IMG/VR virus record: IMGVR_UViG_3300046727_000269
DNA: 60,630 bases
Strand: one strand, 5' to 3'
Origin: a virus
Shown: in pieces, positions 644-58,257 of the stretch
How positions within the stretch are numbered: the first letter of the stretch is position 1
Layout: the number at the start of each line of letters is the position of its first letter
Notes under the pieces: model-generated
What the model saw: only the letters and a program-made list of their open reading frames with translations
The model's database searches: none
Told to the model about the DNA's origin: nothing
Program-made: the position numbers and the translations under genes

Positions 644-656
644 TTTCCCTGTGAAA
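644..656 (-). promoter_or_regulatory. TTTCACAGGGAAA motif, exact copy, gene sense
   Basis: Minus strand reads TTTCACAGGGAAA-AAGGACTC-ATG (8 nt to ATG 635); sits between the ERCC4 gene stop (661) and the next ORF. Confidence 0.7.
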
Positions 657-660
657 GATT

Positions 661-1479
661 CTATCCTTCGTCCCTCAACCCTCTCACCTGATCGTAAATC
701 TTCTGTGCCAGTACCTTCCCGATCCCCGGCACCTTCCCATCGGGGTCCTTTACCTTCTCCAGTGCCTTCACGTCCGCCTGACACAGGGCATAGAGGGAAG
801 GGAAGTGGCGCTCGATTAGCCCCGACCTGTCCCACCCAATGCCATCGAGGGTGAAGGCAGCACGGCGGAGGGTAGAGGCTTTCGTCACCGTGACGTGATT
901 TTGTGGCCTATGGATGGCTACGTGGGCACTGTGTTTCTCCCAGGGTTTGGAGTACGAGTGGTGCAATGCCAAAACAAACTCCACGGTGCTTCTCTCATCT
1001 ACCGTATGCTTCACATGCAGGGGCGTACACATTTGCAGAGTGTTGAGGTACGCTTCCATCTCTAGGCTTACGAATGTCTGTGTACCGACTTGGCACGGCA
1101 CCCAGTCCCGGCCTCTCTTCGTCTCCAACATTCCCGTGGTCCAATTCGACCGATATCTCCCCTCTACAACTAACCACGATTCCGCCCCGTACTCACGGAA
1201 CAATTTGGGCAACTGTTCACCGGACAATCGCCCGGATCGTATGTCCGACAGTAGCCCTTTCACCGTTTTGCGCTCGATCCCAACAAGGACCGGCCCATCG
1301 GGACCATTGCCAGAAAAGCAGAAGTCCCCCGCGTCAAGTTGTTTGGGGTGGGCGGGTGGGTGGGTGCGGTGGGAACGGAGGAGGGTGAGCATGTCGGTGC
1401 CTACGGTACGGGCGGAGTCGTGCGGGTGGACGCGTTCTTTTTCGCGGAGGTCCACGTAGATGGGAGAGAGGTCGGTCAC
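661..1479 (-). CDS. ERCC4/XPF-Mus81-type structure-specific nuclease with C-terminal helix-hairpin-helix
   Basis: 272 aa; GDFCF...VGIERKTVKGLLSDIRSGRLSGEQ matches the GDxn-ERK-x3-D ERCC4 signature; C-terminal VPGIGKVLAQKI is HhH-like; GTG start. Confidence 0.8.
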   Translation of the reverse strand: MTDLSPIYVDLREKERVHPHDSARTVGTDMLTLLRSHRTHPPAHPKQLDAGDFCFSGNGPDGPVLVGIERKTVKGLLSDIRSGRLSGEQLPKLFREYGAESWLVVEGRYRSNWTTGMLETKRGRDWVPCQVGTQTFVSLEMEAYLNTLQMCTPLHVKHTVDERSTVEFVLALHHSYSKPWEKHSAHVAIHRPQNHVTVTKASTLRRAAFTLDGIGWDRSGLIERHFPSLYALCQADVKALEKVKDPDGKVPGIGKVLAQKIYDQVRGLRDEG

Positions 1480-1483
1480 GGAG

Positions 1484-1678
1484 TTACTGAACCATTCTTA
1501 CTAACAAAATATCAACTGCCGTCTTGGGATCTTTGGACGCTGGGCAGTCGGGAGAGACTTGTTTATGGTGCATCTCCACCAAATAACAAGCTACAGATAA
1601 AGGCGGGTCCTCTGGGAGTACATGGACGGACCTAGATTGGTTTGGTGAGCACATTGCACACCTGTAGAAAATCATCAT
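1484..1678 (-). CDS. Hypothetical small Cys-rich protein (64 aa)
   Basis: ORF track 1484..1687; ATG 1678 overlaps the upstream stop (ATGA); exactly fills the gap before the ERCC4 start; visibly A/T-richer than its neighbours. Confidence 0.4.
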   Translation of the reverse strand: MMIFYRCAMCSPNQSRSVHVLPEDPPLSVACYLVEMHHKQVSPDCPASKDPKTAVDILLVRMVQ

Positions 1679-1908
1679 ACCTGCCACCGCAACGGCTCCG
1701 GTTCACGACTGGGCGCGTAGTCGGGGGGAGGGGTGCCTTGGCAGTACTTAGACACAGCACCCACCCTCGGCACACTGGAGAACTTCTCACAGCTACAACG
1801 AATGCACGGACCACTCCCAGGGTGAATGATGCCACTCAGTCCCGGTTTAACGTGCTCCCGCATGTGGTGACCACACTTACAATGCGTTCTCATTCTCATC
1901 CTTTTCAT
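1675..1908 (-). CDS. Small zinc-binding protein with CxCGH...PCxxCxC motif (77 aa)
   Basis: MKRMRMRTHCKCGHHMREH...GPCIRCSCEKF; ATG 1908 overlaps the upstream stop (ATGA); motif recurs at 16764..16922 and inside 58233..59747. Confidence 0.6.
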   Translation of the reverse strand: MKRMRMRTHCKCGHHMREHVKPGLSGIIHPGSGPCIRCSCEKFSSVPRVGAVSKYCQGTPPPDYAPSREPEPLRWQV

Positions 1909-3608: not shown

Positions 3609-3621
3609 TTTCCCTGTGAAA
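3609..3621 (-). promoter_or_regulatory. TTTCACAGGGAAA motif, exact copy, gene sense
   Basis: Minus strand TTTTTTCACAGGGAAA-AGTTATTT-ATG (8 nt to ATG 3600). Confidence 0.7.
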
Positions 3622-7080: not shown

Positions 7081-7093
7081 TTTCCCTGTGAAA
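7081..7093 (-). promoter_or_regulatory. TTTCACAGGGAAA motif, exact copy, gene sense
   Basis: Lies 8 nt after the TAG of the zinc-ribbon ORF and 13 nt before GTG 7067. Confidence 0.7.
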
Positions 7094-7101: not shown

Positions 7102-7260
7102 CTACCTACTGCGCTTCTTTTTAGTGTCCTGCCTGTCCGCACTCGGTGACGGCATCGGACCTTCCCCGCATTCCTCACATGCTACGTTGCGTCCCATGTC
7201 GGATTGCGTGGCCCCACACCAAGGACACTTCACTTCTTCTACTGGTTCCAGTTTTTTCAT
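7102..7260 (-). CDS. Zinc-ribbon protein (52 aa)
   Basis: Hand translation MKKLEPVEEVKCPWCGATQSDMGRNVACEECGEGPM...KKKRSR; CxxC...CxxC; ATG 7260 shares 1 nt with the upstream stop (TGATG). Confidence 0.5.
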   Translation of the reverse strand: MKKLEPVEEVKCPWCGATQSDMGRNVACEECGEGPMPSPSADRQDTKKKRSR

Positions 7261-7985
7261 CACTGTTCCCTCAACCTAGGCCGGTGCTCATCGTCTGGCA
7301 CCACTTCGCTCCCACTCCCAATCCTCTTTACCGTTGCCGCGTACTCGCTCGGCTTCTTTACTGCCCCGCTCGCATTGAAGCAGTCCCGGTACTTGTGCTC
7401 GATCTCACCCTTGAATCGGCGGGTCCAGGTGGAGTCCTGCACCCCATCCAGCTTCGATCTGATAGCCCCCAGCATCTTCAACGCCTCGGCACTCTCCCCA
7501 GATCGCATGTGGCGGTCAATCTGAGCCTCGGTACGGGCCAGGGCTTCCTCCACCCGCGTCCTCATGTCGTCGTCCCGCGCCACCTCCATGATGGATTCGA
7601 GCGACGGGAGGATGTGTTTCTCGATGGAATTGCGTTGCGCTGTACACCAATACAGGTGCCGCTTCACAGCGTGGCGTATCATGGCGGCAACATCGATGTA
7701 GGGGAAGCGGAGGGACCGGACGATAATCTGTGCTGCCCTCACCATCGACGGGGGCATGGAGATATTCACCGTCATGTGGGCACCTCGGTCGTCTCTGCCC
7801 GCGATCACGAAGGTGTCTAGTTCTTCTATCGGGACTTCGGCATGCATGGAGCCGCAGGTGGGGCAGGGTACCATCACCTCTGGGTCCGCGTCGCGGTAGT
7901 CTATGTCGTCGGGGACGGAGCGAGTAGAGGAGGAAGGGACGTTATCGGGGTCCGAGTGGTGGTTACTGCCGTTGCGACGGGCCAT
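7260..7985 (-). CDS. Hypothetical protein (241 aa) with CPTCG zinc knuckle
   Basis: Start taken at ATG 7985 (MARRNGSNHH), just after the upstream stop at 7990; no family recognised. Confidence 0.6.
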   Translation of the reverse strand: MARRNGSNHHSDPDNVPSSSTRSVPDDIDYRDADPEVMVPCPTCGSMHAEVPIEELDTFVIAGRDDRGAHMTVNISMPPSMVRAAQIIVRSLRFPYIDVAAMIRHAVKRHLYWCTAQRNSIEKHILPSLESIMEVARDDDMRTRVEEALARTEAQIDRHMRSGESAEALKMLGAIRSKLDGVQDSTWTRRFKGEIEHKYRDCFNASGAVKKPSEYAATVKRIGSGSEVVPDDEHRPRLREQ

Positions 7986-7989
7986 GTGA

Positions 7990-8277
7990 TTAGATGTTCC
8001 CCTCAGATTTCTTAGCCTCATCGTAGATTGGGATGCACGGGCACTGGAATACCCCATGGTCCTCACATCGCTTGTGGGCTTGGGCAAACTCTTTGGCAGC
8101 GTCAATGTTCAGAAAGTCTTTATCCGGGAATTGAACAGCGTACATAGACTGCGGGCAACCCTTGTTCTTGGGATCGTATCTGGCTATCGACACAAACACC
8201 CGATCCCCAGAAATTCCAAACCAGTTTCCACCAACCTCTTTCCACTGCAACAGGGGTACACCAATCTCTTTAGACAT
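7990..8277 (-). CDS. Hypothetical protein (95 aa)
   Basis: ORF track; tightly packed. Confidence 0.6.
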   Translation of the reverse strand: MSKEIGVPLLQWKEVGGNWFGISGDRVFVSIARYDPKNKGCPQSMYAVQFPDKDFLNIDAAKEFAQAHKRCEDHGVFQCPCIPIYDEAKKSEGNI

Positions 8278-8280
8278 ATC

Positions 8281-8613
8281 TTAGTGCCCCCCCGGTGTCT
8301 TGCCCGTCGGAGGAATCAACGTGGCCCCGTACAGAGGATTCTCGGCCCGCCTGATGTACTCCGTAAGATTGTGGATCGCGGCCAATCCCTCGGCTTCCGC
8401 CATTCGGAGTTGGGCGAGTTGGACCTTGCAAAGGGCGACGGTGAGAGGGTCCTCAACAACATCCCTTAAGTCCGCGTTGACCTTAGACTCTCTCCCCGCC
8501 TCCACCAGCACCTTAATACATTCCGTCGTCGTGGCTACCCTCGCCTCGATCCCAGGCAATTGTGCCTTGGCCTGTTCCAACGCCTGCCTCTGCCTCGGAT
8601 CAGCGGGACCCAT
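8281..8613 (-). CDS. Hypothetical coiled-coil protein (110 aa)
   Basis: ORF track. Confidence 0.55.
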   Translation of the reverse strand: MGPADPRQRQALEQAKAQLPGIEARVATTTECIKVLVEAGRESKVNADLRDVVEDPLTVALCKVQLAQLRMAEAEGLAAIHNLTEYIRRAENPLYGATLIPPTGKTPGGH

Positions 8614-8878
8614 ACATCACCTCCAGTGCCGTCTGCTCTTTCCTCACGAACCTGTCCACGGTCTTGTGGGTGTCCACGATGGTATGGCACTTCTCCTTAT
8701 CCAACGTATCCCCGTCCGGCGTCACTACGACTCCCGGATTCTTTTGCTTTTTGAGGGTGATGGATAACGCGGCACAACGTACGTTGGAGAATCGGGCGAC
8801 TGGGTTGCCTTTGCCCGACACGACAATGTACGGGTGCTTGGCGGGATCAAGAAAGAGAAACTGACTCAGAACAGACAT
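8600..8878 (-). CDS. Hypothetical protein (92 aa), first gene of the leftward operon from the divergent region
   Basis: ORF track; start faces the 150-nt divergent region shared with the plus-strand HTH gene. Confidence 0.55.
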   Translation of the reverse strand: MSVLSQFLFLDPAKHPYIVVSGKGNPVARFSNVRCAALSITLKKQKNPGVVVTPDGDTLDKEKCHTIVDTHKTVDRFVRKEQTALEVMYGSR

Positions 8879-9028
8879 AGCAATACGGGTCTACTCCTGC
8901 TCGATTTTCAGACGATCAATTTTGGTGCAACCCAACTTAGGGACAGTAGCGAGTATAGGTGTATAAGCCACACCAAGTCAAGCCCCTTTTTAGATTTATT
9001 TTCACCACACCTGTGATACACTTTTGCC

Positions 9029-9247
9029 ATGAGCCTTTCACGGGTCGAAGACAACCTGGAAAAGACTACCAGCTACGCCATCTCCAAGAGTGTGGGGGTA
9101 GACGCAAGTCATGTACGACACATTCTCCGGGGTACACGGGTCCCTAGTTTAGAGGTCGCGGCACGGATCGCACGGAAACTCAACGTGAGTCTTGATATGT
9201 TCTACCGCTACTACTCACGGCAGAGCAAACAAACTCCAGTGAATTAG
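9029..9247 (+). CDS. XRE/Cro-CI-type helix-turn-helix regulator (72 aa)
   Basis: TTSYAISKSVGVDASHVRHILRGTRVPSLEVAARIARKL fits the HTH_3 pattern; divergent from the minus-strand operon. Confidence 0.75.
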   Translation: MSLSRVEDNLEKTTSYAISKSVGVDASHVRHILRGTRVPSLEVAARIARKLNVSLDMFYRYYSRQSKQTPVN

Positions 9248-9249
9248 TC

Positions 9250-9879
9250 TTGACACTCCCGCAGGAACACCCCAAGGAACACCGTACCTGGATTGGTATG
9301 CGTAAGCGGTGCTTTGACACAACCGATCCCGCGTACAAGCATTACGGCGGACGAGGTATCGTCGTGTGTGATGAGTGGAGACTTTCCTTTGCGGCGTTTT
9401 TTGCTCACATAGGACCGGCCCCGTCACCTAAGCATCAAGTAGATAGGTACCCAAATAATGACGGCGACTATGAACCTGGAAATGTGCGTTGGGCGACGAC
9501 TAAAGAGCAGTCAAGAAACAAACGCAACAACTCCTGGTACCTCGTGGACGGACTACACAAAATGGTGGGGACTGACGCAATAAAATTCTTAGGCAAGAAA
9601 CCAAACGCCTGCATAATACACCATCCGAGAGTGAAGATGCTGGAGAACACCTACAGAAGATACGACATGTTAGAACACCTGCAATTCACCATCGAATGCT
9701 ACAAGTCCGACATAGAAGAACACATGGATGGAGTAAAAGAGTTGACAGATCAAATCCGAGTCACTGAGTCCCTGATTGAGGAAGAGAAGGAAAGACGCCA
9801 GAGAATAGTGGATAAGGTTGCAGCTTCCAATCGGCGTTACGAAGAAGCAAAAATCAAAATGCGTGCGGCCTCGGCCTAG
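9250..9879 (+). CDS. HNH-like (degenerate) homing-endonuclease-type protein, paralog 1
   Basis: HRTWIGMRKRC...YGGRGIVVCDEW..F..F...VDRYPNNDGDYEPGNVRWATTKEQSRNKR; paralog of 30293..30952; TTG start 2 nt after the HTH stop; visibly A/T-richer. Confidence 0.65.
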   Translation: MTLPQEHPKEHRTWIGMRKRCFDTTDPAYKHYGGRGIVVCDEWRLSFAAFFAHIGPAPSPKHQVDRYPNNDGDYEPGNVRWATTKEQSRNKRNNSWYLVDGLHKMVGTDAIKFLGKKPNACIIHHPRVKMLENTYRRYDMLEHLQFTIECYKSDIEEHMDGVKELTDQIRVTESLIEEEKERRQRIVDKVAASNRRYEEAKIKMRAASA

Positions 9880-10172
9880 CCTAGTGCCCGTGAGCCTGGA
9901 CGCGTTCTATCGGTATTACTCGAAACAGGCCCAGGGGTCCGTGTCGGTGAATTAGCGAAGGACCGAAAGTTAATCAGACGTGACTCAACCATCAGTAGGT
10001 TAAACTCCAGCATCCGCCGATTGTGTTTTCTTTCCCTCTCCGCATGAGCCTCTATTTGTCTGACTCGTTCTGTGCAGACACCTAAGCGTAGGCCAATGTC
10101 TTTCAACGTGTAACCACGATCACGAAGGAGTAGGATAAACTCTCTCCGTTGGACGACCTGAGATCGGGTCAC
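9876..10172 (-). CDS. Stand-alone sigma-70 region-4-like HTH protein (98 aa)
   Basis: REFILLLRDRGYTLKDIGLRLGVCTERVRQIEAHA contains the ERVRQIE region 4.2 signature; GTG 10172 overlaps the upstream stop (GTGA); C-terminal 26 codons are antisense to the HTH relic. Confidence 0.6.
   Translation of the reverse strand: MTRSQVVQRREFILLLRDRGYTLKDIGLRLGVCTERVRQIEAHAERERKHNRRMLEFNLLMVESRLINFRSFANSPTRTPGPVSSNTDRTRPGSRALG
9887..9955 (+). pseudogene. Relic duplicate of the 3' end of the XRE-type HTH gene
   Basis: Encodes PVSLDAFYRYYSKQAQGSVSVN* versus the intact NVSLDMFYRYYSRQSKQTPVN* at 9182-9247; differences are mostly synonymous; both end GTGAATTAG. Confidence 0.7.
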
Positions 10173-10492
10173 GTGAGCCCCGCCCAAATCCTCGTGTTGA
10201 GGGTGATGATGACCTCCCTCTCCACGTCGTCCATCATCAACGCCACGAGGACGCGGTCCCCACCCTCGACCTGTTCCGGCTGATAGTCCGGGTGGGATTC
10301 CTTCCGAGGACTGATCTTGAGCACGGTGCCGGGCCACAGGATGTCGCCCGTACTCTTTTTCTGTGCTGTGCCGGGGAGGTGGAGGAGCCCGAGGTCAGAC
10401 ATCGTGGGGGGCTTGTCGAGGTGGATTATCGCCCTACCTGGGAGGGGGGAGATTCGCGCCACGTCAGACAGTGTAAGTGTGCCCGTGTTCAC
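10169..10492 (-). CDS. GroES/Cpn10-like co-chaperonin
   Basis: ISPLPGRAIIHLDKPP..GLLHLPGTAQKKSTGDIL...GGDRVLV parallels GroES IRPLHDRVIV...GIVLTGSAAEKSTRGEVL...VGDIVIF; GTG 10492 overlaps the upstream stop. Confidence 0.55.
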   Translation of the reverse strand: MNTGTLTLSDVARISPLPGRAIIHLDKPPTMSDLGLLHLPGTAQKKSTGDILWPGTVLKISPRKESHPDYQPEQVEGGDRVLVALMMDDVEREVIITLNTRIWAGLT

Positions 10493-10740
10493 GGTTGCAC
10501 CCCTCTCCACCTCTCCTCGAACTCATCCACCGCCTTGTCCGCCGCCAGTCTCGCGTCGTACACGCACTGATGGATACCTTCCTGGGTCGATGGCTCCCGG
10601 CCTTCGAGGAACGTGCTCAGGGCCGTCGTATAGATGTCCAGCCACAATTCGGATATCTCCTTGGCCCGTGCCCGTGTGTCAATCTGGGAACGGTCGCGGG
10701 GCTCGGGTTTTGGTTTGGGTTTTGGTTTGGTCCACGACAT
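10489..10740 (-). CDS. Hypothetical protein (83 aa) with KPKPKPKPEP N-terminus
   Basis: ORF track. Confidence 0.55.
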   Translation of the reverse strand: MSWTKPKPKPKPEPRDRSQIDTRARAKEISELWLDIYTTALSTFLEGREPSTQEGIHQCVYDARLAADKAVDEFEERWRGVQP

Positions 10741-10856
10741 GGGATTATTCTAGCTCCATTTTATAAAAATATACCTTACCTCACCTGATCGTACCTAGCC
10801 TAACCCAGCCTGACTACACCGGACCCAGCCCCAACACACTCGTCCACACCGCACCA
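10741..10856. repeat. Strand-asymmetric C+A-rich (GGT-rich on the coding strand) non-coding block, 3' flank of ORF 10857..11492
   Basis: Almost G-free on the plus strand; shares ACCTCACCT and ACCTAGCCT(A/T)ACCC words with block 11541-11660. Confidence 0.6.
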
Positions 10857-11492
10857 CTAATCTTGTGTAGTCTCAAACTTTGTCAACTGGTACCGCCCGA
10901 ACGTGGGCCGGAAATCTCCCACACCACAGATCCGGCCCGCGAGACTGAACACCTCGTGGAGAAGTTCTGGACTGACGTACTCGGGCAACACGACTTCAAA
11001 AGTCGCATCGACCTCCCACCCAGCCAACAGTGCGGGCCGGTGCCGTGTGATCCCGTTGCGTTGAATCATCACGCGGCGACGGTCGATGTAGTCCCAATCC
11101 TTCTTCCCGGTTGAGCAATACTCCTCCGTTGGGAAGATCGCCGCCTTGAACAGGTCCATCGCGGATTTCCGAGGTGACCTTGGGTCCTGTTTGAATTTGG
11201 CTGCAAGGACGATGGACATACGGAACTGTTCCGCTGGTACACACAGGATTCCCTTTTCGTTCCGGTACACGTAGGACTCCAAGTCGTCCTCTTTTTTCGC
11301 TTTGCTCCCTTTGGCCGCTTTCGACTTCGCCTCCACCCCGTCCACCGACCAACGGTGGAAGAGATAGGGAGCCGCCCCGTGGACTCGGACTGACACTGAG
11401 TAGGGCTTGTTGATGTCAATGATCCGTTCCGCGTCGTTCGACACGTCACCGATCATGGTAACTTTCTTCGCTGTTGCTACTGCACTTTTCAT
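10857..11492 (-). CDS. Hypothetical protein (211 aa) bracketed by GGT-rich non-coding blocks
   Basis: Start taken at ATG 11492 after AGGAGAACGGGTAAAA; C-terminal GVGDFRPTFGRY glycine-rich loop; no family recognised. Confidence 0.6.
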   Translation of the reverse strand: MKSAVATAKKVTMIGDVSNDAERIIDINKPYSVSVRVHGAAPYLFHRWSVDGVEAKSKAAKGSKAKKEDDLESYVYRNEKGILCVPAEQFRMSIVLAAKFKQDPRSPRKSAMDLFKAAIFPTEEYCSTGKKDWDYIDRRRVMIQRNGITRHRPALLAGWEVDATFEVVLPEYVSPELLHEVFSLAGRICGVGDFRPTFGRYQLTKFETTQD

Positions 11493-11540
11493 TTTTACCC
11501 GTTCTCCTGAATTGAATTTGACCTTACCGCACACAGCCAA

Positions 11541-11660
11541 GCCTGGGCGAACCCAAACTTACCTGACCTCACCTACCGAACCCCAGCTAACCAGCACCAC
11601 GCCATACCATGCCTTGCCATACCGCAACTCGGCTGACCTAGCCTTACCCCACCGAACCAC
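11541..11660. repeat. Strand-asymmetric C+A-rich non-coding block (5' leader of ORF 10857..11492)
   Basis: On the minus strand: GGTTCGGTGGGGTAAGGCTAGGTCAG ... GGTATGGC x2 ... GGGTTCGGTAGGTGAGGTCAGGTAAG; shares 9-15-nt words with 10741-10856. Confidence 0.6.
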
Positions 11661-11664
11661 GTCA

Positions 11665-11700
11665 GACTGTACAATAATCCAAAGGTTATTGAACAGTCAA
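11665..11700 (-). promoter_or_regulatory. Sigma-70-like promoter overlapped by a 13-bp inverted repeat (candidate operator)
   Basis: Minus strand TTGACT-18 nt-TATTGT; arms GACTGTTCAATAA / TTATTGTACAGTC (12 of 13 complementary) with an 8-nt spacer; directly after the recombinase stop. Confidence 0.45.
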
Positions 11701-11710
11701 GAGGGAATTG

Positions 11711-12364: not shown

Positions 12365-12380
12365 GTGGACTAGGATAGTG

Positions 12381-12414
12381 CCAATTTCCCCCTTTGGCAA
12401 TTAGGGGAAGTTGG
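12381..12414. repeat. Imperfect inverted repeat just upstream of the recombinase start (candidate recombination site or operator)
   Basis: CCAATTTCCCC-12 nt-GGGGAAGTTGG, 10 of 11 complementary. Confidence 0.4.
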
Positions 12415-12416
12415 GA

Positions 12417-12773: not shown

Positions 12774-12937
12774 CTTTACTTTCAACACTCCACCTCCAGA
12801 ACACCCACCCCGCTCGACCACCCCGCTAACGGGTAAACGTCGCTGATGAGTGTTCCGCAGGTCCCCGGCCCCGCGTAGGGGTGGTCGTGACACCGTTTCC
12901 GCGAAGGGCCTGCTACCCAGGCCGGGGAAAGTCAAAC

Positions 12938-13383: not shown

Positions 13384-13448
13384 GCCTCAATCCTCTCAAG
13401 CCTTTTTGTGTGGGTCAATGCCCCCGTTTGTGGGGAGAACGTGAGGGG

Positions 13449-44600: not shown

Positions 44601-44613
44601 TTTCCCTGTGAAA
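44601..44613 (-). promoter_or_regulatory. TTTCACAGGGAAA motif, exact copy, gene sense, at the head of the leftward virion operon
   Basis: 23 nt upstream of ATG 44577, inside the 176-nt divergent region. Confidence 0.7.
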
Positions 44614-46789: not shown

Positions 46790-47716
46790 TTACCGGGGTG
46801 CCACCAACACGAGCACCCTCTTGTGCAACGCCTTCATACTCATCTTGCCCGCCAGGAACCCCTTGAGGCACGCGTACAGTTCCAACGCCTTCTTGTCGGC
46901 GGCAACGATTTTACCCTCCGCCGCCTTGATGGTGCCCACCTGAGCCTCCACGGACTCATACAACTCTTCCGCGTCGGGGGTCGATGCCTTCGCCTTCTTC
47001 CGCCCTTGCTTCCCCTTGCGTCCCTTTTTCTTCTTCGCCTTGGATGCCTTGGCGGAGGCGGTGCCGGTGGTAGGATTCTCCAACTCAGCCAGTAGCTCGT
47101 CCTGTTCAACCTCGGACAATGCGGGGAGCACTTCCATGACACGGGACGACACGAGGCCCCTGTGAATCTTGGTTTGAATTTCCTTACGGAGGCCGATCAA
47201 CGCCAGCAATCGAGTTACCGACGTGGGACTCAGCCCCAGTACCTTCCCCGCCGCCCCCTTCCCCATCCCACCTACCTCCACCTTTTCCTTCAGGATGTAC
47301 GCCTTGTCCATTGGGCTCAGGTCGGTGCGCTGCAAGTTCTCGTCCAGGTTCACCCCTTCCGATGGCCCCGAGATTACCGTGGCCCGGATCGGTACCGGGT
47401 GCCCCTCATCAGCGAGTAACCGCAACGCCCCTACTCGCTGATACCCCGCTTCCAATTGATGGGTGGCCCCGTCGCCATTCGCCTCGACCGGGTACACGAT
47501 CACGGGGTTGATTAGCCCCTGCTCTCGGATCGAGTCGGCCAACTTGCGAATGTCCTGGGCCGGTACCGGGAACTTTCTCAGGTTCCGCCCCTCCTCCACC
47601 CGGAGCTTGTCCAAGGCCAATTCAATGACCGGCCCCTCGACCTTGGCCCCCGTCCCCGTCATCGGCTCGTTGCTCACGCGGACGCTCGGCCCGCTCTTAC
47701 CCTTTTTGTTACCCAT
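46790..47716 (-). CDS. ParB N-terminal-domain protein
   Basis: IRKLADSIREQGLINPVIVYPV...HQLEAGYQRVGALRLL matches the ParB/Srx core; basic C-terminal tail; start taken at ATG 47716. Confidence 0.8.
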   Translation of the reverse strand: MGNKKGKSGPSVRVSNEPMTGTGAKVEGPVIELALDKLRVEEGRNLRKFPVPAQDIRKLADSIREQGLINPVIVYPVEANGDGATHQLEAGYQRVGALRLLADEGHPVPIRATVISGPSEGVNLDENLQRTDLSPMDKAYILKEKVEVGGMGKGAAGKVLGLSPTSVTRLLALIGLRKEIQTKIHRGLVSSRVMEVLPALSEVEQDELLAELENPTTGTASAKASKAKKKKGRKGKQGRKKAKASTPDAEELYESVEAQVGTIKAAEGKIVAADKKALELYACLKGFLAGKMSMKALHKRVLVLVAPR

Positions 47717-48113
47717 AGATGGGTTCTCCTTCCCCTTCGTCGTCGTCATCGTCTTCATCGTCACCAGGGCCGAGGTCGGCGGTCGGGGTGGTCACGTCGT
47801 CTCCTTCAACTTCCGGCACGTCGTCACCGTCATCATCCTCGTCGTCCTCGTCCCCCTCGTCGTCCTCTTCGTCTTCAGGCTCAACGTGTTCCAACGCCTT
47901 CGCCTCGTAAACCCATGAGGGTAGTAGGCTCTCCACGTTCTGAGCCTCGTCCCCCGCCCCTTCCGGCAAATCTACAAACGCGAGGTACTTCTTACCGTTT
48001 GGAGCTTCCCATTCCAGGGGTTCCCCAAACGGGACTAATTCCGATTCGTCCTCACCTAGGCACAGTTTGTATCCGTCCGGGACGGTAAGTAAGCGTACGT
48101 CTGAATGGGCCAT
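47709..48113 (-). CDS. Protein with an extremely acidic C-terminal tail (134 aa)
   Basis: EPEDEEDDEGDEDDEDDDGDDVPEVEGDD...GDDEDDDDDEGEGE. Confidence 0.6.
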   Translation of the reverse strand: MAHSDVRLLTVPDGYKLCLGEDESELVPFGEPLEWEAPNGKKYLAFVDLPEGAGDEAQNVESLLPSWVYEAKALEHVEPEDEEDDEGDEDDEDDDGDDVPEVEGDDVTTPTADLGPGDDEDDDDDEGEGEPIYG

Positions 48114-48182
48114 AGATTGTGCGTTGTACCCGTTCCTTTCCTTAATCAGTTTGGGGGAGGGGAGGGGGCCGTGTCAAGGGTT

Positions 48183-48195
48183 TTTCACAGGGAAA
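48183..48195 (+). promoter_or_regulatory. TTTCACAGGGAAA motif, exact copy, the only one in plus sense
   Basis: In the 92-nt gap between 48206..48454 and 47709..48113; the minus strand reads TTTCCCTGTGAAA-AACCCTTGACACGG, about 70 nt upstream of ATG 48113. Confidence 0.55.
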
Positions 48196-50008: not shown

Positions 50009-51547
50009 TTACTCCTCCCACCACTCGGAATTTTGACCGCCCTTTTTTGGGTCGGGCACAGGTACACACACGTCCACGAGTTCTCGCTTAGCCCGCGTTA
50101 CCGCAACGTAGGCTAGGTTCCGCTCTCCCTCGATGTCGGCCTCAGTCTTGGCCCACTTGGACGGCTGGTACCGATTCCGACCCAGGATAAACACACGATC
50201 CCACTCACGGCCCTTCGCACGGTGAATCGTACAGAGCCTCACGAGGTCCTGTCCCTGGTACTGCCCCTCGCCAAAGGTCATTTCAAGTTTCTGGACCAAC
50301 CGGCGCACCGGCTCATCTCCCCCCACGTCCTCCATCAGGTCCCGGAGTATCCCCACCTTCTCCCCGACCCACTCCGCCTTGTCCTCTCGACCTTTGCCCC
50401 GCCACTTCTCCAACTCCTTCTCCAGGTGGCCGGACAGGAGGACATCCAACTGATCTACGGTAATGTCCCCGCCCCATTTCGTGGCGAGGGCAATGATGGC
50501 TTTCCCACTCTGGCCCTCGACGATGCAGGGGATGCCATTGTTGCGGAGGCGGCGGGCGACCCCTACCAAGGGGCGAGTATTCCGGCACAGGATGGCGTCC
50601 TTGCCAGGGACCAGTGACTCCCCCCAGAACTTGAGGTGGGAAATGGTACGGACGGTGCCTTCAGGATTCTCCTCGTGCGCCGTGTAGTCAGGACACCACG
50701 TTTGCGCGAGGGCCACCACTGATTTAGGGCACCGATACGTAATGTTCAAGGGCAACTCATCCGCCCCAGTCACATCTCTGATTAGGTCCATCGCGTTAGC
50801 CGTGGCCCCGGCGAAATGAAAGATACACTGGAAATCGTCGCCTACCGCAATGACCCGGCCACCAGTTTTGAGCACGTGGAGGGCCATCAGGCGACGGGTG
50901 GCACTGGTATCCTGGCACTCATCAATCATTACCGTGTCGTACAATTCTGGCTTTCCCTGTGAAAACATGAGGGGGAGGAGGAGCATGTCACTGAAGTCGA
51001 TCCTCCCCTCGTCGCACGCCATCCTCACCGATTCCTTGTATGTCTTGATGCACTCGGTGATAATCCGTGCCGGTGTGATCCCACTAGGCACCTCATCCCA
51101 AAGGTCGTAGTCGTCAAATAGTTTCTCCCATGACGTAACACTGTCGATGGCGGGGAGACCAGGGATGCCGAACCCAATGTGCTTGGCGTACTCTACCGCG
51201 TCCACCAGGACATCGGCGTGTGCCCGGTCCCACTGGGCGTGGGTCTTAGCGATGGCACGGACTTTGCGCCCGTCCACCTCGTTCTTGCTACGAATCTTGC
51301 GCCACTGGGAGAAGCCCACGGAATGGAGGGTGGCGGCGGTGGCGTACGGATTGCCCGTGATGCGGGACCCGAGTTCATCGGCAATGCTCTTGTTAAAAGC
51401 GCAGAGGAGTGTATGGCCCACGGTGCGATTGGCGCATTCCACGAGCACGGTAGATTTCCCCGTGCCTGCCCTCGCTTTAATAATGAGGGAATCACGGCTC
51501 TGTTGAACTTTCGCGTAGATGAGAAGTTGCTGTTCCGACCAATTCAT
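50009..51547 (-). CDS. UvrD/PcrA/Rep-type superfamily-1 helicase
   Basis: Start ATG 51547 after GTAAGGAGACTAGTCAA; Walker A ARAGTGKSTV, MIDECQDTS, TIHRAKGREWD, YVAVTRAK. Confidence 0.85.
   Translation of the reverse strand: MNWSEQQLLIYAKVQQSRDSLIIKARAGTGKSTVLVECANRTVGHTLLCAFNKSIADELGSRITGNPYATAATLHSVGFSQWRKIRSKNEVDGRKVRAIAKTHAQWDRAHADVLVDAVEYAKHIGFGIPGLPAIDSVTSWEKLFDDYDLWDEVPSGITPARIITECIKTYKESVRMACDEGRIDFSDMLLLPLMFSQGKPELYDTVMIDECQDTSATRRLMALHVLKTGGRVIAVGDDFQCIFHFAGATANAMDLIRDVTGADELPLNITYRCPKSVVALAQTWCPDYTAHEENPEGTVRTISHLKFWGESLVPGKDAILCRNTRPLVGVARRLRNNGIPCIVEGQSGKAIIALATKWGGDITVDQLDVLLSGHLEKELEKWRGKGREDKAEWVGEKVGILRDLMEDVGGDEPVRRLVQKLEMTFGEGQYQGQDLVRLCTIHRAKGREWDRVFILGRNRYQPSKWAKTEADIEGERNLAYVAVTRAKRELVDVCVPVPDPKKGGQNSEWWEE
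50952..50964 (-). promoter_or_regulatory. TTTCACAGGGAAA motif, exact copy, gene sense, intragenic (helicase)
   Basis: Encodes MFSQGK within 50009..51547. Confidence 0.45.
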
Positions 51548-51605: not shown

Positions 51606-51797
51606 TTATTTTTTCTTTTTCCCTGTGAAAGGGAGGACAGTACCCTCACCCTTACCCGTGCCCCGGTCCTTGCAATGCCCCCTCGCCTCCCTCGCCCCCT
51701 CACACTTCACCCCACAGAACGTACAGTACCGGGGACGGAGCTTAGGCCCGGTACGGATACGGGGGGTAAGGTCTGGGGCAGTGGTACGCTTGCTCAC
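51606..51797 (-). CDS. Small zinc-ribbon-like basic protein (63 aa)
   Basis: GTG start with GTGA overlap; YCTFCGVKCEGAREARGHC; last codons (PFTGKKKK*) contain motif copy 51618-51630. Confidence 0.5.
   Translation of the reverse strand: MSKRTTAPDLTPRIRTGPKLRPRYCTFCGVKCEGAREARGHCKDRGTGKGEGTVLPFTGKKKK
51618..51630 (-). promoter_or_regulatory. TTTCACAGGGAAA motif, exact copy, gene sense
   Basis: 70 nt upstream of the helicase ATG 51547. Confidence 0.65.
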
Positions 51798-56482: not shown

Positions 56483-56495
56483 TTTCACCGGGAAA
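56483..56495 (+). promoter_or_regulatory. Motif variant TTTCACCGGGAAA (mirrored)
   Basis: The minus strand TTTCCCGGTGAAA contains the TGA stop of 56485..56877. Confidence 0.4.
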
Positions 56496-56877
56496 GATTT
56501 GCATTTTGAGCCTCCCTTTTCGCCGCCAACTTCGCCAATCTCTTCCTCGTCTCCTCCTGGTGCTCCCGTTCCAGCTTCACTGCCAGTTGATCCAATTGCC
56601 TGTCCGCTTCCTTCTGCCGTTCCATTTCCAATCTCCTCGCCTCTTCCTCATCGGTGAAAGAATGGGTCAGGTGTACGCCGATCACGTTCAGCAGGCTCTC
56701 GACGCCACGGGAGAGTTTCACTTGGCTCCAGGAATCCTTGGTCCCCTTTTTGAACGTGTGATTACCTACCGTGAAGTCACGGAGCACTACCCCGTTCTTC
56801 GCCAGGGGCTCCGGTTTAACCGTATGCACTTTCACCTTGGCCTGCTTGGGAACGATTCTGAGTTTCTTTTTTCTCAC
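56485..56877 (-). CDS. Hypothetical protein (130 aa), basic N-terminus, charged coiled-coil C-terminus
   Basis: ORF track, GTG start. Confidence 0.5.
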   Translation of the reverse strand: MRKKKLRIVPKQAKVKVHTVKPEPLAKNGVVLRDFTVGNHTFKKGTKDSWSQVKLSRGVESLLNVIGVHLTHSFTDEEEARRLEMERQKEADRQLDQLAVKLEREHQEETRKRLAKLAAKREAQNANLSR

Positions 56878-56880
56878 GGG

Positions 56881-57252
56881 CTACCGGATCTCGTCGTAGT
56901 ACTTCCTGTCTTCCGTTCGATAGTCGTCCTTGGTTTTCCGTTTCGTCCTCAACGTGTACATCAATAGATCATGGAACCACTTTTCAAGGATTGGGAAATG
57001 ATATTTGACCGTCATCCGTTCGCACGCCTCACATACCGGGACCGGGAGGCGGGAACTGCGGCGGACCATCAACGTGAGGGTAGATGGGAGCACGCCAATG
57101 GTCCGCGCCAATTCCTCCCAGGTCATGCCGGTATACTCCTTCAACAGGCCCAACGCCTCCCCGATGGTCTGGGGTTTGACCTCGCGGGGCCGGTGGCTCC
57201 GATGGTAGGTGCGGAACAGGCGTTGGTAAAAAGATTCTTCGGTCTGTGCCAC
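56881..57252 (-). CDS. HTH-containing protein (123 aa)
   Basis: MTWEELARTIGVLPSTLTLMVRR is HTH-like; GTG 57252 shares 1 nt with the upstream stop. Confidence 0.5.
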   Translation of the reverse strand: MAQTEESFYQRLFRTYHRSHRPREVKPQTIGEALGLLKEYTGMTWEELARTIGVLPSTLTLMVRRSSRLPVPVCEACERMTVKYHFPILEKWFHDLLMYTLRTKRKTKDDYRTEDRKYYDEIR

Positions 57253-57683
57253 TACAGCATCTCCATGACTCTCACCTTGCGCCGGAAGGTGTTCCACAAC
57301 TCCGTCATTACCCCCGCTTCAATTTGGGCCACGAGGATGGGGGTGAGGCGCATCTGGGCCTCCTGTGGGGCGTTCCACGTGCCTCCTGATATCGTCCGCA
57401 TCTGCTGGTCGTGGTACAGGTACTCGACATCGATCCCGTCGTCGGTAGCGTACGCGTTGCATACGATCTCGGAACGGGTCAAGGGTGACTCTTGGAGGAA
57501 GAAAGAAACTCGGAGTGTGTACGGATCTTCAGTTGCCGTTACCAATTTACCTGTGCTCCCTGTTTTCGATTTGCTCGTGCGCCCGGTGCCGGTACCCTTA
57601 CCCTCGCCACTGCCCCGTCCCAGTACCCTTCTCTTATAACATACATGGATATAAATATACAAGGCTTGTACAACGATATTCAT
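57252..57683 (-). CDS. Hypothetical protein (143 aa or less, start uncertain)
   Basis: ORF track; the 5' third lies in an A/T-rich stretch that may be non-coding. Confidence 0.4.
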   Translation of the reverse strand: MNIVVQALYIYIHVCYKRRVLGRGSGEGKGTGTGRTSKSKTGSTGKLVTATEDPYTLRVSFFLQESPLTRSEIVCNAYATDDGIDVEYLYHDQQMRTISGGTWNAPQEAQMRLTPILVAQIEAGVMTELWNTFRRKVRVMEML

Positions 57684-57768
57684 GTATAGGGGGTCTGGGG
57701 GGGACGAAACTAAAAATTACGGTGTTTTGGGGGTTGGTATACAGCTTTTGTTCTCTTTTTGTTCCCTT

Positions 57769-58257
57769 TCATGCCCTACCATTCACCTTGTTCCAGACTC
57801 TCAGAGCTTCATTAATGTGTTGCCAAGTTGCCAAGAGTTCAGCTTGTATTTTGCGCTCAACTCGTACTTTCCTTTTCTTCGGGGGTGTAATTTTAGTGCG
57901 CTGGACTCGATACACGCCGTAGATTCTTTGACCACTTGAGATTCTTTGGCTGCGTAAAACATGTTGGCGATTACTGACTGGTTTGAGTCTTTTGATGAGT
58001 CGGATCTCAAGCTGTTCCCTCTCTTCAATCTCACGGTATTTGAAGGTTAGTTGGCTTGCCTCCGCTAGAACTCCCAAAGCACGTTTTAGATGGCCATTCA
58101 GCCTCTTTCGTAGGTTCTTGGATTCCCCAACGTATCTCAGTAACCCATCGAGGTATATGACGTAAACGCCCGAAGATTGTGGGACTGTGTTGATGCCGTC
58201 GATGGTTGCAGATTTCCAGCGCGACAAAGTTTTCACAGGAAAAGAAACGGTTGGCAC
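57769..58257 (-). CDS. GIY-YIG nuclease (homing-endonuclease type)
   Basis: SGVYVIYLDGLLRYVGESKNLRKRLNGHLKR; A/T-richer than its surroundings; overlaps the end of the exonuclease gene by 25 nt. Confidence 0.75.
   Translation of the reverse strand: MPTVSFPVKTLSRWKSATIDGINTVPQSSGVYVIYLDGLLRYVGESKNLRKRLNGHLKRALGVLAEASQLTFKYREIEEREQLEIRLIKRLKPVSNRQHVLRSQRISSGQRIYGVYRVQRTKITPPKKRKVRVERKIQAELLATWQHINEALRVWNKVNGRA
58231..58243 (+). promoter_or_regulatory. Motif variant TTTCACAGGAAAA (one mismatch, plus sense)
   Basis: Inside the first codons of the GIY-YIG gene; weak. Confidence 0.25.

Follow-up and report, generated by a model that had tools for sequence, protein, structure and literature searches.

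The DNA analysed here (the window: the whole 60,630-nt stretch of IMG/VR record IMGVR_UViG_3300046727_000269) raises the question of what is served by a 13-base word, TTTCACAGGGAAA, that recurs along it, mostly at the 5' edge of genes. Judging from sequence comparison, the word is most likely the docking site of a DNA-binding regulator encoded by the element itself, a reading that we favour over a promoter or an RNA hairpin.

The window ends in a 127-bp terminal overlap, the duplicated part of which holds no copies of the motif, and thus corresponds to a circular assembly of 60,503 bp. It is a complete, circular, phage/plasmid-like element of ~60.5 kb from an uncultured, undescribed family. 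No close relative was found in GenBank phages, PLSDB or IMG/VR; the proteins of the motif-bearing relatives are just 40-85% identical to those of the window. The relatives compared were L002, L003, L004, L006, L007, L008, L010 (the closest), R2 (= L016) and L018, and every contig is a free circle of ~60 kb. Pfam and PHROGs matched no structural protein, and an amidase, Ig-like domains and the gene layout hint weakly at a viral nature. One early or maintenance region is free of the motif (table 1). Its layout of toxin, small recombinase and opposite-strand HTH gene is repeated in L018; a small recombinase is also present in R2, being of the serine type in the window and of the tyrosine type in R2 and L018. 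The ParE/RelE toxin-antitoxin gene, the small recombinase and a ParB-family gene together suggest plasmid-like maintenance and a plasmid-prophage lifestyle, so that the element would be temperate or plasmid-living. The HNH gene of the region is mobile, lying in different places in different relatives.

The recurrence of the word is a real observation: there are 12 exact copies against 0.00 expected from dinucleotide shuffles, and 17 matches with at most two mismatches against 1.6 expected. All 12 were found where the preliminary description had placed them, 11 on the minus strand and one on the plus strand (48183), and the variants that it had listed at 15278, 56483 and 20488 were recovered, as was 58231, among the matches with at most two mismatches. 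Its distances to start codons (8, 8, 13, 12, 15, 2 and 23 nt, besides two of 59 and 70 nt) proved correct on inspection of the flanks, and so did its statement that only a pyrimidine at -1 and purines at +14/+15 are conserved outside the word (31 sites, 7 genomes). The supposed lock to gene direction stands for exact copies (11:1, P = 0.006) and becomes weaker once the one-mismatch sites, which are themselves non-random, are counted: the coding-strand tally is then 11 direct, 3 inverted (48183, 15278 and 56483) and 1 perfect palindrome (20488). Eight of the 12 exact copies are wholly intergenic, against an intergenic share of 5.2% of the genome (P = 2e-8), and in 7 of the 12 a start codon follows 2-23 nt beyond the motif. 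Copies are spaced 3-7 kb apart over a long stretch transcribed in one direction, and the sites, ~15 in total, extend across the replication, structural and lysis modules. The copy at 50952 may be incidental, since the closest relative has TTTCCCAGGGAAA there, one synonymous base apart.

Table 1. Motif sites and other features of the window, with counterparts of the sites in related genomes.
Feature	Position	Strand	Context	Counterparts in relatives
Exact copy	644..656	(-)	8 nt 5' of ATG 635 (29-aa ORF); directly past ERCC4-nuclease gene	R2 (L016 16284, TTTCACAGTAAAA); L018 (10847, TTTCACAGGAAAA)
Exact copy	3609..3621	(-)	8 nt 5' of ATG 3600; TTT extends T-run of terminator-like hairpin ~3626-3674 (fold -30.9 kcal/mol)	R2: hairpin kept along with motif variant TTTTACAGAAAAA
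Exact copy	7081..7093	(-)	13 nt 5' of GTG 7067; ahead of small gene and DEAD_2 helicase	R2 (L016 9798); upstream flank aggtagtaagaagt conserved too
Early or maintenance region	7200..13485	(-)	Motif-free
Best sigma-70-like promoters of window	12619, 11700, 8981		In motif-free region
Serine resolvase	11711-12400		In motif-free region
ParE/RelE toxin	12938-13216		In motif-free region
Strong intrinsic terminator	13485-13458		In motif-free region
XRE and HNH genes		(+)	In motif-free region
One-mismatch site	15278..15290	(+)	Inverted, TTTCCCGGTGAAA on coding (minus) strand; includes TGA of upstream gene; next ATG 8 nt downstream
Exact copy	20216..20228	(-)	Final codons of 20200-20613; 12 nt 5' of ATG 20203
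Perfect 6-1-6 palindrome, TTTCAC-A/T-GTGAAA	20488..20500	(.)	Within coding sequence
Exact copy	22940..22952	(-)	15 nt 5' of GTG 22924
Exact copy	27660..27672	(-)	53 nt into gene 26286-27725, signal-peptide codons (L-F-T-G-K)	47 nt into homologous genes of L003 (exact) and R2 (TTTCACAGTAAAA, L-F-T-V-K, R2's own motif variant)
Exact copy	33779..33791	(-)	59 nt 5' of 141-aa gene, itself ahead of conserved 284-aa gene	46-55 nt 5' of same gene in L002, L003, L004; own variant in each
Exact copy	37523..37535	(-)	2 nt 5' of ATG of 611-aa gene	L003 (3 nt), L004 (2 nt), L010 (2 nt), L006 (0 nt)
Exact copy	44601..44613	(-)	Divergent intergenic region; 23 nt 5' of ATG 44577	Aligned position kept in 5 genomes: direct in window and L010, inverted in R2 and L004, near-palindromic in L006
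ParB-family protein (ParB_N and HTH_ParB, Pfam)	46790-47764	(-)		All relatives
First gene of ParB operon, 134 aa, very acidic D/E-rich tail	47709..48113	(-)		All relatives
Candidate promoter, acidic protein and ParB operon	48148..48177	(-)	TTGACA (48177-48172), 18-nt spacer, CAAACT (48153-48148)	L004: TTGCAC-N17-TACACT
Exact copy, sole one in plus sense	48183..48195	(+)	TTTCCCTGTGAAA on coding strand; 5 nt 5' of TTGACA box	Arrangement kept in L010, L004, R2; site also in L006
Exact copy	50952..50964	(-)	Mid UvrD-like helicase gene (F-S-Q-G-K)
Candidate sigma-70-like promoter, helicase operon	51602-51573		TTGCAA 51602-51597, 18 nt, TAGGCT 51578-51573
Exact copy	51618..51630	(-)	15 nt 5' of candidate helicase-operon promoter	L010 identical; R2 motif 8 nt 5' of TTGCAA
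One-mismatch site	56483..56495	(+)	Inverted on coding strand (TTTCCCGGTGAAA); 12 nt 5' of ATG
One-mismatch site, uncertain status	58231..58243	(+)	TTTCACAGGAAAA; 3' end of UDG-exonuclease gene

As had been described, the word is an imperfect 6-1-6 palindrome, in which 5 of 6 positions pair. Allowing up to one mismatch, the genome has 18 instances of TTCAC-N-GTGAA at spacer 1, where ~1 is expected for any one spacer. The exact asymmetry (ACAGGG) is retained in every copy. Orientation may flip while position stays, as in the sites at 15278 and 56483, which are inverted yet lie 8 and 12 nt 5' of coding-strand ATGs. The preliminary description had also asked whether the motif is conserved at equivalent positions of related genomes, and it is, in L003, L004, L006, L010 and R2. 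What varies is its spelling. R2 has GTAAAA in place of GGGAAA at 6 homologous sites, including the copy inside a gene (Gly to Val); L004 has GGAAAA, and both L006 and L007 carry a central G. The more distant L007 and L008 have perfect TTCAC-N3-GTGAA palindromes in like places (5, 13 and 29 nt 5' of starts, one of them 13 nt 5' of parB). Because the motif is altered in concert within each genome, it is expected to be read by an element-encoded trans factor and not by the ribosome or an unmodified host polymerase, which points to a reader that co-evolves with its sites.

These data bear on the proposal that the word acts in RNA. The stem-loop once suggested for it found no support: the 13-mer folds at 0.0 kcal/mol, the C4:G10 pair is lost (G to A) and uncompensated in two clades, the Y/R flanks do not co-vary, and no RNA family was found. 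A broader version, in which a start-associated sequence, transcribed within the ribosome-binding region, would tune translation initiation by attracting the ribosome or a factor of phage or host origin, seems to us quite improbable. It would account for the 7 of 12 copies that stop 2-23 nt short of a start codon and for the purine-rich 3' half that runs into the Shine-Dalgarno region, and its formal parallels with the start-associated sequences (SAS) of cluster K phages are striking (PMC3203893). However, conserved copies also lie 46-70 nt 5' of starts or 47-53 nt into coding sequence, and RNA recognition cannot explain inverted sites that hold the same distance to coding-strand ATGs. Nor can the word pair with invariant rRNA, since it differs between close relatives; GTAAAA of R2 has no Shine-Dalgarno character, and no stable or co-varying RNA structure was seen. 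The dyad, and a sister motif that is palindromic, speak instead for DNA.

If the word acts in DNA, it might be a phage-specific promoter, used by the host RNA polymerase with a factor from the element or by an unrecognised polymerase, with transcription beginning inside or right after the motif as in T7 class II/III or T4 late promoters. Several features would suit this. The copies share the orientation of the genes, are enriched in intergenic DNA and are spaced at 3-7 kb; the early region with the best sigma-70-like promoters has none of them, while the stretch from 42 to 60.6 kb is poor in such promoters (0 against 7.7 expected). Purines are conserved at +14/+15, one copy directly follows a terminator-like hairpin, and a co-evolving specificity factor would fit the concerted change. 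Still, we regard a promoter as unlikely. A scan of ~60 proteins found no RNA polymerase, the conserved 634-aa protein being a coiled-coil without a polymerase-like fold, and the sole sigma-like protein is absent from R2, where the motif persists. Conservation is limited to ~15 nt, with no -35/-10 partner, as the preliminary description had noted for the -35 element. The placement is also awkward for a start signal: in 5 genomes the 611-aa gene has its ATG 0-3 nt past the motif, one copy is conserved 47-53 nt into coding sequence, and the site at the divergent locus points in opposite ways in two genomes versus two. Antisense transcription would be expected from three inverted sites, including one kept in 4 or 5 genomes, and the sister clade has perfect palindromes instead.

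The earlier proposal of a virus-specific promoter or operator read by an HTH protein divides into two halves. Its promoter half lacks a partner element, an RNA polymerase gene or a sigma factor conserved among relatives, whereas its operator half agrees with the dyad symmetry, the co-variation across relatives, the in-place flip at one locus and the adjoining sigma-70-like promoters. The readers named for it fare poorly: R2 retains the motif yet lacks a homologue of the sigma-region-4-like protein (9876-10337), the XRE protein is barely conserved (33%), and the HTH protein at 56881-57252 is a weak candidate at most. The conserved ParB-family protein did not figure on that list.

This orphan ParB-family protein is, in our comparison, the most likely reader. 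It scores 66.9 bits against NCBIfam TIGR00180 (cut-off 58.45), matches Spo0J (3e-10), Noc (4e-9) and KorB (9e-5) in the PDB, and has been kept by every relative. The window and L010 have the same motif and the same putative recognition helix, which is different in each genome with a different motif, a correspondence confounded by phylogeny and drawn from just 5 or 6 genomes; L007 and L008 retain the TTCAC half-site despite strongly diverged ParB helices. The strong half of the motif, TTTCAC, is the half-site of parS, and GGGAAA that of the Noc NBS. The promoter of the ParB operon next to one site is a candidate recognised by its match to the sigma-70 consensus. Against ParB as the reader count its GYQR in place of the canonical CTP-binding motif GERR and the missing ParA, no ParA-type Walker motif being found in the element. 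Moreover, the asymmetry of the sites is kept without obvious need for a symmetric ParB dimer, so that a better fit would be an L5-type repressor acting as a two-domain monomer; none was recognised among the proteins of the element.

Half-sites resembling parS, together with a ParB-family protein and plasmid-type maintenance genes, also raise the possibility of purely centromere-like sites, at which ParB would serve segregation of the plasmid-prophage with no role in expression. Dispersed centromere repeats of this kind (sop sites) are present in the linear plasmid-prophage N15. We think this very improbable, as no ParA-type ATPase is encoded, a centromere needs neither an 11:1 strand bias nor placement at gene 5' ends or beside promoters, and ~15 sites spread evenly over 60 kb are unlike the clustered parS of most replicons. 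Strand-specific DNA processing, through localised nicks as in T5, phiKMV and tf-type phages or through replication or packaging signals, hardly deserves credence. A long, exact, strand-biased word and the encoded HNH and GIY-YIG nucleases would be in keeping with it, but the HNH gene has no fixed place among relatives, positions relative to start codons and promoters are kept to the nucleotide across diverged genomes, and both orientations occur. Dyad symmetry is not known from the consensus sequences of nicks.

We are thus left with a cis-acting operator for an element-encoded regulator, with the ParB-family protein as its likeliest reader and silencing of lytic units as its outcome, a reading to which we give somewhat less than an even chance. 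We infer that a protein binds the sites, that it is this one and that the effect is repression. The sites would be 13-bp, near two-fold symmetric yet asymmetric targets of the element's own sequence-specific DNA-binding protein, which would keep the lytic transcription units down during persistence, probably as a plasmid-like prophage. Owing to their asymmetry, the block might be polar with respect to the direction of transcription, a possibility for which mycobacteriophage stoperators offer a parallel. With ParB as the reader, they could act as the KorB OB sites of plasmid RK2 do, as points where a ParB-type protein binds or loads and from which it silences promoters close by. An operator does not require such closeness to start codons (2-23 nt for 7 of the 12 copies), which counts against this reading.

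Four known systems invite comparison. Like the motif, the SAS of cluster K are 13 bp long, asymmetric with symmetric outer triplets and present in 11-19 copies (PMC3203893; PMC12699233); they lie a few nt 5' of starts, all but one copy in the same orientation, and persist from one subcluster to another (PMC3203893). They differ in having an AGGAG Shine-Dalgarno core, which the motif lacks, in lying 3-7 nt from starts, against 0-70 nt or inside genes, and in being restricted to non-structural genes, while the motif has a dyad and is found in every module.

The C1 operators of P1 and the conserved inverted repeats of phiC31 are, as proposed for our sites, numerous repressor targets dispersed across the genome of a temperate phage. 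P1 itself lives as a plasmid-prophage and encodes ParB, a recombinase and a toxin-antitoxin system. In both phages the sequences and proteins are other than those of the window; P1 operators overlap recognisable promoters, and no C1-like protein was found in the window.

The stoperators of cluster A are reportedly also treated in a further study by Mavrich and Hatfull (2019). Those read by L5 gp71 and the TipsytheTRex repressor are likewise 13-bp asymmetric words, in at least a dozen near-identical copies on a genome of ~50-60 kb, found in short intergenic spaces and promoters, oriented with transcription and varying in consensus between related phages (PMC9283540). Their sequence (GGTGGMTGTCAAG) is unrelated to the window motif, which has a 6-1-6 pseudo-palindromic form and is matched in relatives by a sister motif that is palindromic. 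Its ~15 sites, three of them inverted, compare with >20 stoperators; the host of the window is not a mycobacterium, and among the window's proteins none was recognised as homologous to the HTH-plus-stoperator-domain repressor.

Plasmid RK2 carries 12 OB sites. The OB core is a 13-bp TTTAGC-G-GCTAAA, with proximal sites 4-10 bp upstream of promoters and others far from them (PMC11790492). Unlike OB, and unlike the sites of ParB-parS and Noc-NBS, those of the window fall short of true palindromes and have an asymmetry that is both conserved and biased towards one strand. Most adjoin start codons and not promoters, their binding is putative, no ParA/IncC or KorA partner was identified in the window, and GYQR stands for GERR. 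The likeness to the KorB OB sites of this IncP plasmid lies in the length of 13 bp, the 6-1-6 form, the outer triplets TTT...AAA and the dispersal over a ~60-kb replicon (PMC11790492). It extends to promoters as well, one conserved site lying 5 nt 5' of the -35 box in the candidate promoter of the parB operon and another 8-15 nt 5' of the TTGCAA of the helicase operon.

We found the 13-mer TTTCACAGGGAAA in 12 exact copies in the window, 11 on the minus strand, which is the coding strand of most genes, and one on the plus strand (48183), whereas none were expected from dinucleotide shuffles. Number, coordinates and strands of these copies were all as given in the preliminary description of this DNA, and the distances to the next start codons proved correct when re-read from the sequence. 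With up to two mismatches allowed, there were 17 matches in the window against 1.6 expected; four to five copies differ from the 13-mer by a single mismatch, and our mismatch scan recovered the four additional sites already reported (15278, 56483, 20488 and 58231). Intergenic DNA makes up 5.2% of the genome and wholly contains eight of the 12 exact copies (P = 2e-8), and the 11:1 orientation of the exact copies (P = 0.006) is matched to the direction of transcription. Once variants are included, the coding-strand tally of full-length sites is 11 direct, three inverted and one perfect palindrome. Distances from motif to start range from 0 to 70 nt, with some copies inside coding sequences. The information content of 31 sites from seven genomes is confined to the 13-mer and its nearest flanks, with one pyrimidine preceding and two purines following.

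The motif is a 6-1-6 pseudo-palindrome in which five of the six position pairs are symmetric, in agreement with the imperfect palindrome first proposed, and its asymmetry is kept in every main copy. In R2, a metagenomic relative of the element, the mismatch shifts from pair 5/9 to pair 4/10 and the symmetric count stays at five. A search for TTCAC-N-GTGAA with at most one mismatch gave 18 sites with a spacer of 1 in the window, against about one expected per spacer length. The two inverted one-mismatch sites precede coding-strand ATGs, one by 8 nt and the other by 12 nt. Five genomes have a site in the same alignment columns of the divergent intergenic region: it is direct in the window and in the relative L010, R2 and L004 have it inverted, and L006 has a near-palindrome. 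A de novo search for other dispersed words, which returned mostly Pro/Gly-rich coding repeats, also brought up five perfect TTCAC-YWR-GTGAA palindromes in the more distant L007, placed 5, 13 or 29 nt upstream of starts or overlapping a GTG start, one of them 13 nt upstream of parB; another relative, L008, has GTTCAT-GTT-GTGAAC. Dyad symmetry, a position kept whatever the orientation and a sister motif that is palindromic characterize protein-DNA sites, not promoters or RNA signals. In the spacer that separates the early genes, which run leftward, from the divergent XRE gene, we also observed an isolated TTTCAC half-site facing TGTGA (TTTTCACCACACCTGTGATAC), adjoining the best sigma-70-like promoter of the window.

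The DNA of the relatives was taken from around homologues of three proteins, and a scan at equivalent positions showed that the motif recurs at homologous places, in each genome's own variant. It is found 0-3 nt before the ATG of the gene for a 611-aa protein in five genomes, 46-59 nt upstream of a 141-aa gene in four and, in three, 47-53 nt inside the signal-peptide codons of one and the same gene. Homologous copies also precede the helicase operon, occur in the divergent region and follow the ERCC4 gene, and one in reversed sense stands upstream of the operon of an orphan ParB-family protein (hereafter ParB). The word varies among genomes and is uniform within each; even the R2 copy within coding sequence follows the R2 variant, at the cost of a Gly to Val change. 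Sites in R2 are direct in seven cases and inverted in two. Because six homologous sites changed in the same way, the sequences point to one trans-acting factor with a drifting specificity, and such concerted change speaks against an invariant reader from the host, for example 16S rRNA or RNA polymerase in its unmodified form. The mid-helicase copy may be incidental, since the L010 sequence differs there by one synonymous change. Of the three replication-module sites, one is retained in L018 and none in L019.

Two other sets of noncoding sequences were observed in the same comparison. The 234-nt spacer before the 141-aa gene contains, upstream of the motif, blocks of inverted-repeat character conserved in four genomes (AGTTCTCGCGG..., CCTTACCCGTTC and GCGTTGCTCG), and these could form a structured leader, or else a terminator or promoter region. 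Two intergenic spacers of L008 (3911-3952 and 12893-12972) carry iteron-like tandem TCAGTAATCAG repeats, three to six units each, of a type not seen in the window.

Sites, motif variants and genes of the element, in window coordinates unless a relative is named
Feature	Location	Remarks
One-mismatch site	15278	TTTCACCGGGAAA
One-mismatch site	56483	TTTCACCGGGAAA
One-mismatch site	20488	Perfect palindrome
Match beyond the exact copies	58231	Also listed in the preliminary description
Motif variant	Window, L003, L010	TTTCACAGGGAAA
Motif variant	L004, L018	TTTCACAGGAAAA
Motif variant	R2 (contig SRR10850318_48; about 54 of 61 kb recovered)	TTTCACAGTAAAA, six exact copies
Motif variant	L006, L007	TTTCACGGGGAAA
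Half-site in divergent spacer	8995-9020 (+)	TTTTCACCACACCTGTGATAC
Best sigma-70-like promoter	8981-8952	TTGACT-18-TATACT
Conserved blocks before 141-aa gene	33792-33953 (-)	
Strong terminator	13485-13458	
Identical ends	1-127 and 60504-60630	
Family-A DNA polymerase, split	58233-59747; 54000-55439	UDG and exonuclease; polymerase
Helicases and nuclease		UvrD-like helicase, DEAD_2 helicase, ERCC4 nuclease
Lysin and Ig-domain genes		Amidase_2 lysin, Ig-domain protein
Nucleases		HNH, GIY-YIG
Other recognizable functions		ParB-family, XRE and sigma-region-4-like proteins; serine resolvase; ParE/RelE toxin
GIY-YIG-like gene	57769-58257	Adjoins exonuclease gene
HNH gene	9029-9879 (+), with the fused XRE gene	
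Toxin, probable antitoxin and small recombinase	11711-13383	
ParB	46790-47764 (-)	
First gene of ParB operon	47709-48113 (-)	134 aa
634-aa gene	44790-46694 (+)	
611-aa gene	35685-37520 (-)	

To serve the 611-aa gene in the five genomes, a phage-specific promoter would need its transcription start within the motif itself. It would also be wasted inside signal-peptide codons and would run antisense at the conserved reversed copy; we regard it as unlikely, even though spacing, orientation, absence from the early region and one terminator-motif junction fit it. As first stated for a -35-like element, the 31-site profile has no conserved partner, and sigma-70-type scores are at background whether the partner is placed upstream of, overlapping or downstream of the motif. 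Its TTCACA could serve as the -35 of a TATA-like -10 only in the divergent region of L006, L007 and L010, which is not general. We found no RNA polymerase among the about 60 proteins of the element that were scanned, and the sigma-region-4-like protein, once suggested as a reader of the motif, has no homologue in R2, which keeps the motif. The 634-aa protein was considered as a hidden RNA polymerase and rejected (a beta domain plus coiled coil; best PDB match E = 0.39). A terminator upstream of every copy was likewise discarded, being convincing only at 3609.

An RNA stem-loop or translation signal, the other role suggested at the outset, is improbable. The 13-mer alone folds at 0.0 kcal/mol, the UUUC/GAAA stem occurs in the minimum-energy structure in four of 11 contexts, and R2 and L004 have lost the C4:G10 pair with no compensating change, as position 10 goes from G to A there and position 4 stays C. 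The flanking pyrimidine and purine show no co-variation either, and the motif matches no Rfam family.

The reading we favour, with a probability placed slightly below even, is that the motif serves as an operator for a protein encoded by the element. This retains the operator half of the original proposal, on account of the dyad, the concerted change and the flips in orientation, and drops the promoter half. The leading candidate for the reader, as yet unproven, would be ParB, the only recognizable DNA-binding protein conserved in every relative. It matches TIGR00180 (NCBIfam ParB/RepB/Spo0J) at 66.9 bits against a cut-off of 58.45 and Pfam HTH_ParB at 28.1 bits (above the 22.6 cut-off), with ParB_N at 19.8 bits (below the cut-off of 26.3), and its structural matches in the PDB are Spo0J, Noc and KorB. 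The strong half of the motif, TTTCAC, is the half-site of canonical parS, TGTTTCAC-GTGAAACA, and the weak half, GGGAAA, is the one present in Noc-binding sites. Only 5 nt separate the reversed copy from TTGACA-N18-CAAACT downstream of it, a candidate promoter of the ParB operon by consensus match only, and the site at this place is conserved in four genomes (window, L010, L004 and R2). The helicase copy precedes TTGCAA-N18-TAGGCT by 15 nt in the window and L010 and by 8 nt in R2. The window and L010 have the same motif and the same putative recognition helix in ParB; the helix is different in R2, L004 and L006, which have other variants. This tracking of motif by helix is only suggestive, given the few genomes compared.

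Several features argue against ParB. A symmetric dimer does not require the conserved asymmetry, for which a monomeric two-domain repressor of the L5 type would be a better fit by analogy, and the TTCAC half-site survives in L007 and L008 despite a diverged helix. In addition, the CTP-binding motif GERRxRA reads GYQRvgA in the window clade, thus GYQR rather than GERR, and G(Y/F)RR in L006, L007 and L008, with the ENxxRxDLS box intact, and no ParA was found: the element encodes no Walker A protein of the KGGxGK type, P-loops being present only in the helicases and one 283-aa protein. The serine resolvase, considered as a conserved partner, was rejected as it is absent from R2. The first gene of the ParB operon, present in every relative, encodes a protein whose C-terminal half is almost pure Asp/Glu and which could be a DNA mimic or a partner of ParB.

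An identical stretch of 127 bases at both ends shows the window to be a complete element of 60,503 bp, assembled as a circle or in circularly permuted form. Independent assemblies gave this contig from a Logan run, at 60,533 bp, and from a JGI metagenome, at 60,646 bp. Nearly all genes are on the minus strand, along which gene order follows one long transcription direction, starting from a strong terminator. A motif-free region from 13.4 to 7.2 kb holds the toxin and resolvase genes together with the best sigma-70-like promoters and, on the plus strand, the genes for XRE and HNH; it is followed by replication genes, the ParB operon, one conserved plus-strand gene, a structural-like block and lysis genes. 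About 20 kb with the layout of a structural module has no match in Pfam or PHROGs, and for this reason the element can be called a virus only as a likely assignment. Rfam and tRNA searches of the window gave no matches. Sigma-70-type promoter-like sequences occur in the expected number in the first 20 kb, and there are none between 42000 and 60630, against 7.7 +/- 2.9 expected from shuffles.

Some genes deserve separate mention. The two parts of the polymerase are encoded about 3 kb apart. The 634-aa gene is the only large plus-strand gene, is conserved in all relatives (43 homologues) and has no Pfam domain; in the model of its product (pLDDT 67), a beta domain predicted with confidence (residues 80-235) is combined with long coiled-coil helices and a C-terminal domain that is helical, and the PDB offered no structural match. 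The 611-aa protein is modular, with homologues (P0001-P0032) of 349 to 1,044 aa that share sequence only in part, in conserved blocks between recurrent Asn-Pro linkers; its AlphaFold model, sought for a virion function, was too poor to use (pLDDT 56). The HNH gene, fused in the window head-to-tail with the XRE gene, has copies of about 50% identity elsewhere in relatives (L002 about 10542; L010 about 3042), and because these lie at quite different genome positions, the endonuclease appears to be a mobile (homing) gene.

Close relatives were found neither among GenBank phages by megablast and tblastn nor in PLSDB, two IMG/VR scans and a protein scan of GTDB genomes. The polymerase and helicase gave only remote matches of about 30% identity, and a scan of metagenomic contigs yielded four distant loci. 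Protein searches revealed a large metagenomic family, with more than 30 distinct contigs of about 57-63 kb in the homologue tables, where a forest metagenome is the one sample whose name tells its source. In the literature, we found the motif in no paper in a microbial context. A host link through a 21-nt pattern of site plus flanks gave one match in an Aquificaceae MAG, inside an ArsA-like cellular gene of 45% GC, which we rejected as chance (about 0.5 expected).

The ParE/RelE toxin and its probable antitoxin are located next to the small recombinase, within the motif-free region. Whereas the window has a serine resolvase here, R2 and L018 have a tyrosine recombinase of about 230 aa at the same place (module at 5514-6197 of the R2 locus L016 and at 136-1263 of L018), which is a non-orthologous replacement; the toxin recurs in L018. 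A toxin of this type, a small recombinase and ParB form the classic maintenance kit of plasmid-prophages such as P1, and the gene content suggests that the element may persist as a plasmid-like prophage. Dispersed operators are known from the setting of silenced extrachromosomal prophages, namely the stoperators of L5 and the C1 sites of P1. The reversed copy at 48183 points the same way as the 634-aa gene, whose transcript is the only long one on the plus strand, and would stop that transcript from running into the replication genes, as a polar block might.

A bolder reading, which we consider rather doubtful, is that the orphan ParB would act as a polar, genome-wide silencer through about 15 asymmetric operators, hybrids of parS and Noc-binding half-sites at the 5' ends of transcription units, in the manner of KorB and without ParA or KorA, and that specificity drift (GGGAAA, GTAAAA, GGAAAA; spacer 1 or 3) would define immunity or incompatibility groups. 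To our knowledge, many-copy operators that silence whole phage genomes have been detailed in only a few models (L5 stoperators, P1 C1 sites and KorB on RK2), and the SAS elements of cluster K phages are, as far as we know, still unexplained after 15 years. If the link to ParB were true, long-range silencing of the CTP-clamp type would be extended from plasmids to viruses, and immunity groups would have a marker readable from sequence. The motif itself marks a widespread uncultured family of circular elements of about 60 kb, and its variants offer a handle for annotating transcription units in this family, ready targets for DAP-seq or EMSA, and a natural series of operators and readers in which to follow the evolution of DNA-binding specificity.

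Compared with known systems, the motif shares with the stoperators of cluster A phages a 13-bp asymmetric site in many near-identical dispersed copies whose orientation is tied to the direction of transcription, but their consensus, GGTGGMTGTCAAG, is unlike TTTCACAGGGAAA. The L5-type repressor is monomeric with two domains (PMC9283540), and no match to the L5 gp71 family (HTH plus stoperator domain) was found with Pfam, PHROG or NCBIfam among the about 60 proteins scanned. The geometry of the motif has a precedent in KorB, a ParB-family protein acting on a 13-bp 6-1-6 site, OB, whose core is TTTAGC-G-GCTAAA and which lies 4-10 bp upstream of promoters or far away (PMC11790492). With KorB-OB and ParB-parS the element shares a ParB-family protein on the same replicon and a site next to the candidate promoter of the parB operon, and it differs from them in that no partner of the ParA/IncC type was found in the window; palindromic dimer half-sites appear in one perfect palindrome and in the L007/L008 clade, yet the main copies conserve their asymmetry. 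The parallel with the SAS of cluster K is striking: these are 13 bp long with symmetric outer triplets, and occur in 11-19 copies in one orientation plus a single reversed copy (PMC3203893), and the window motif is likewise a 13-bp asymmetric word with one main orientation. However, SAS lie 3-7 nt from starts and have an AGGAG core, whereas our motif lies 0-70 nt away, lacks that core and in its R2 variant (GTAAAA) has no Shine-Dalgarno character; SAS are also confined to non-structural genes, whereas copies at 44601, 37523, 33779 and 27660 precede structural-module genes. The motif thus resembles stoperators and SAS in form, and ParB, Noc and KorB sites in sequence and geometry. By sequence it belongs to none of these families, the defining features of each failing, and we class it as a probable operator, present in many copies with a bias in orientation, of elements whose family has not been described before.
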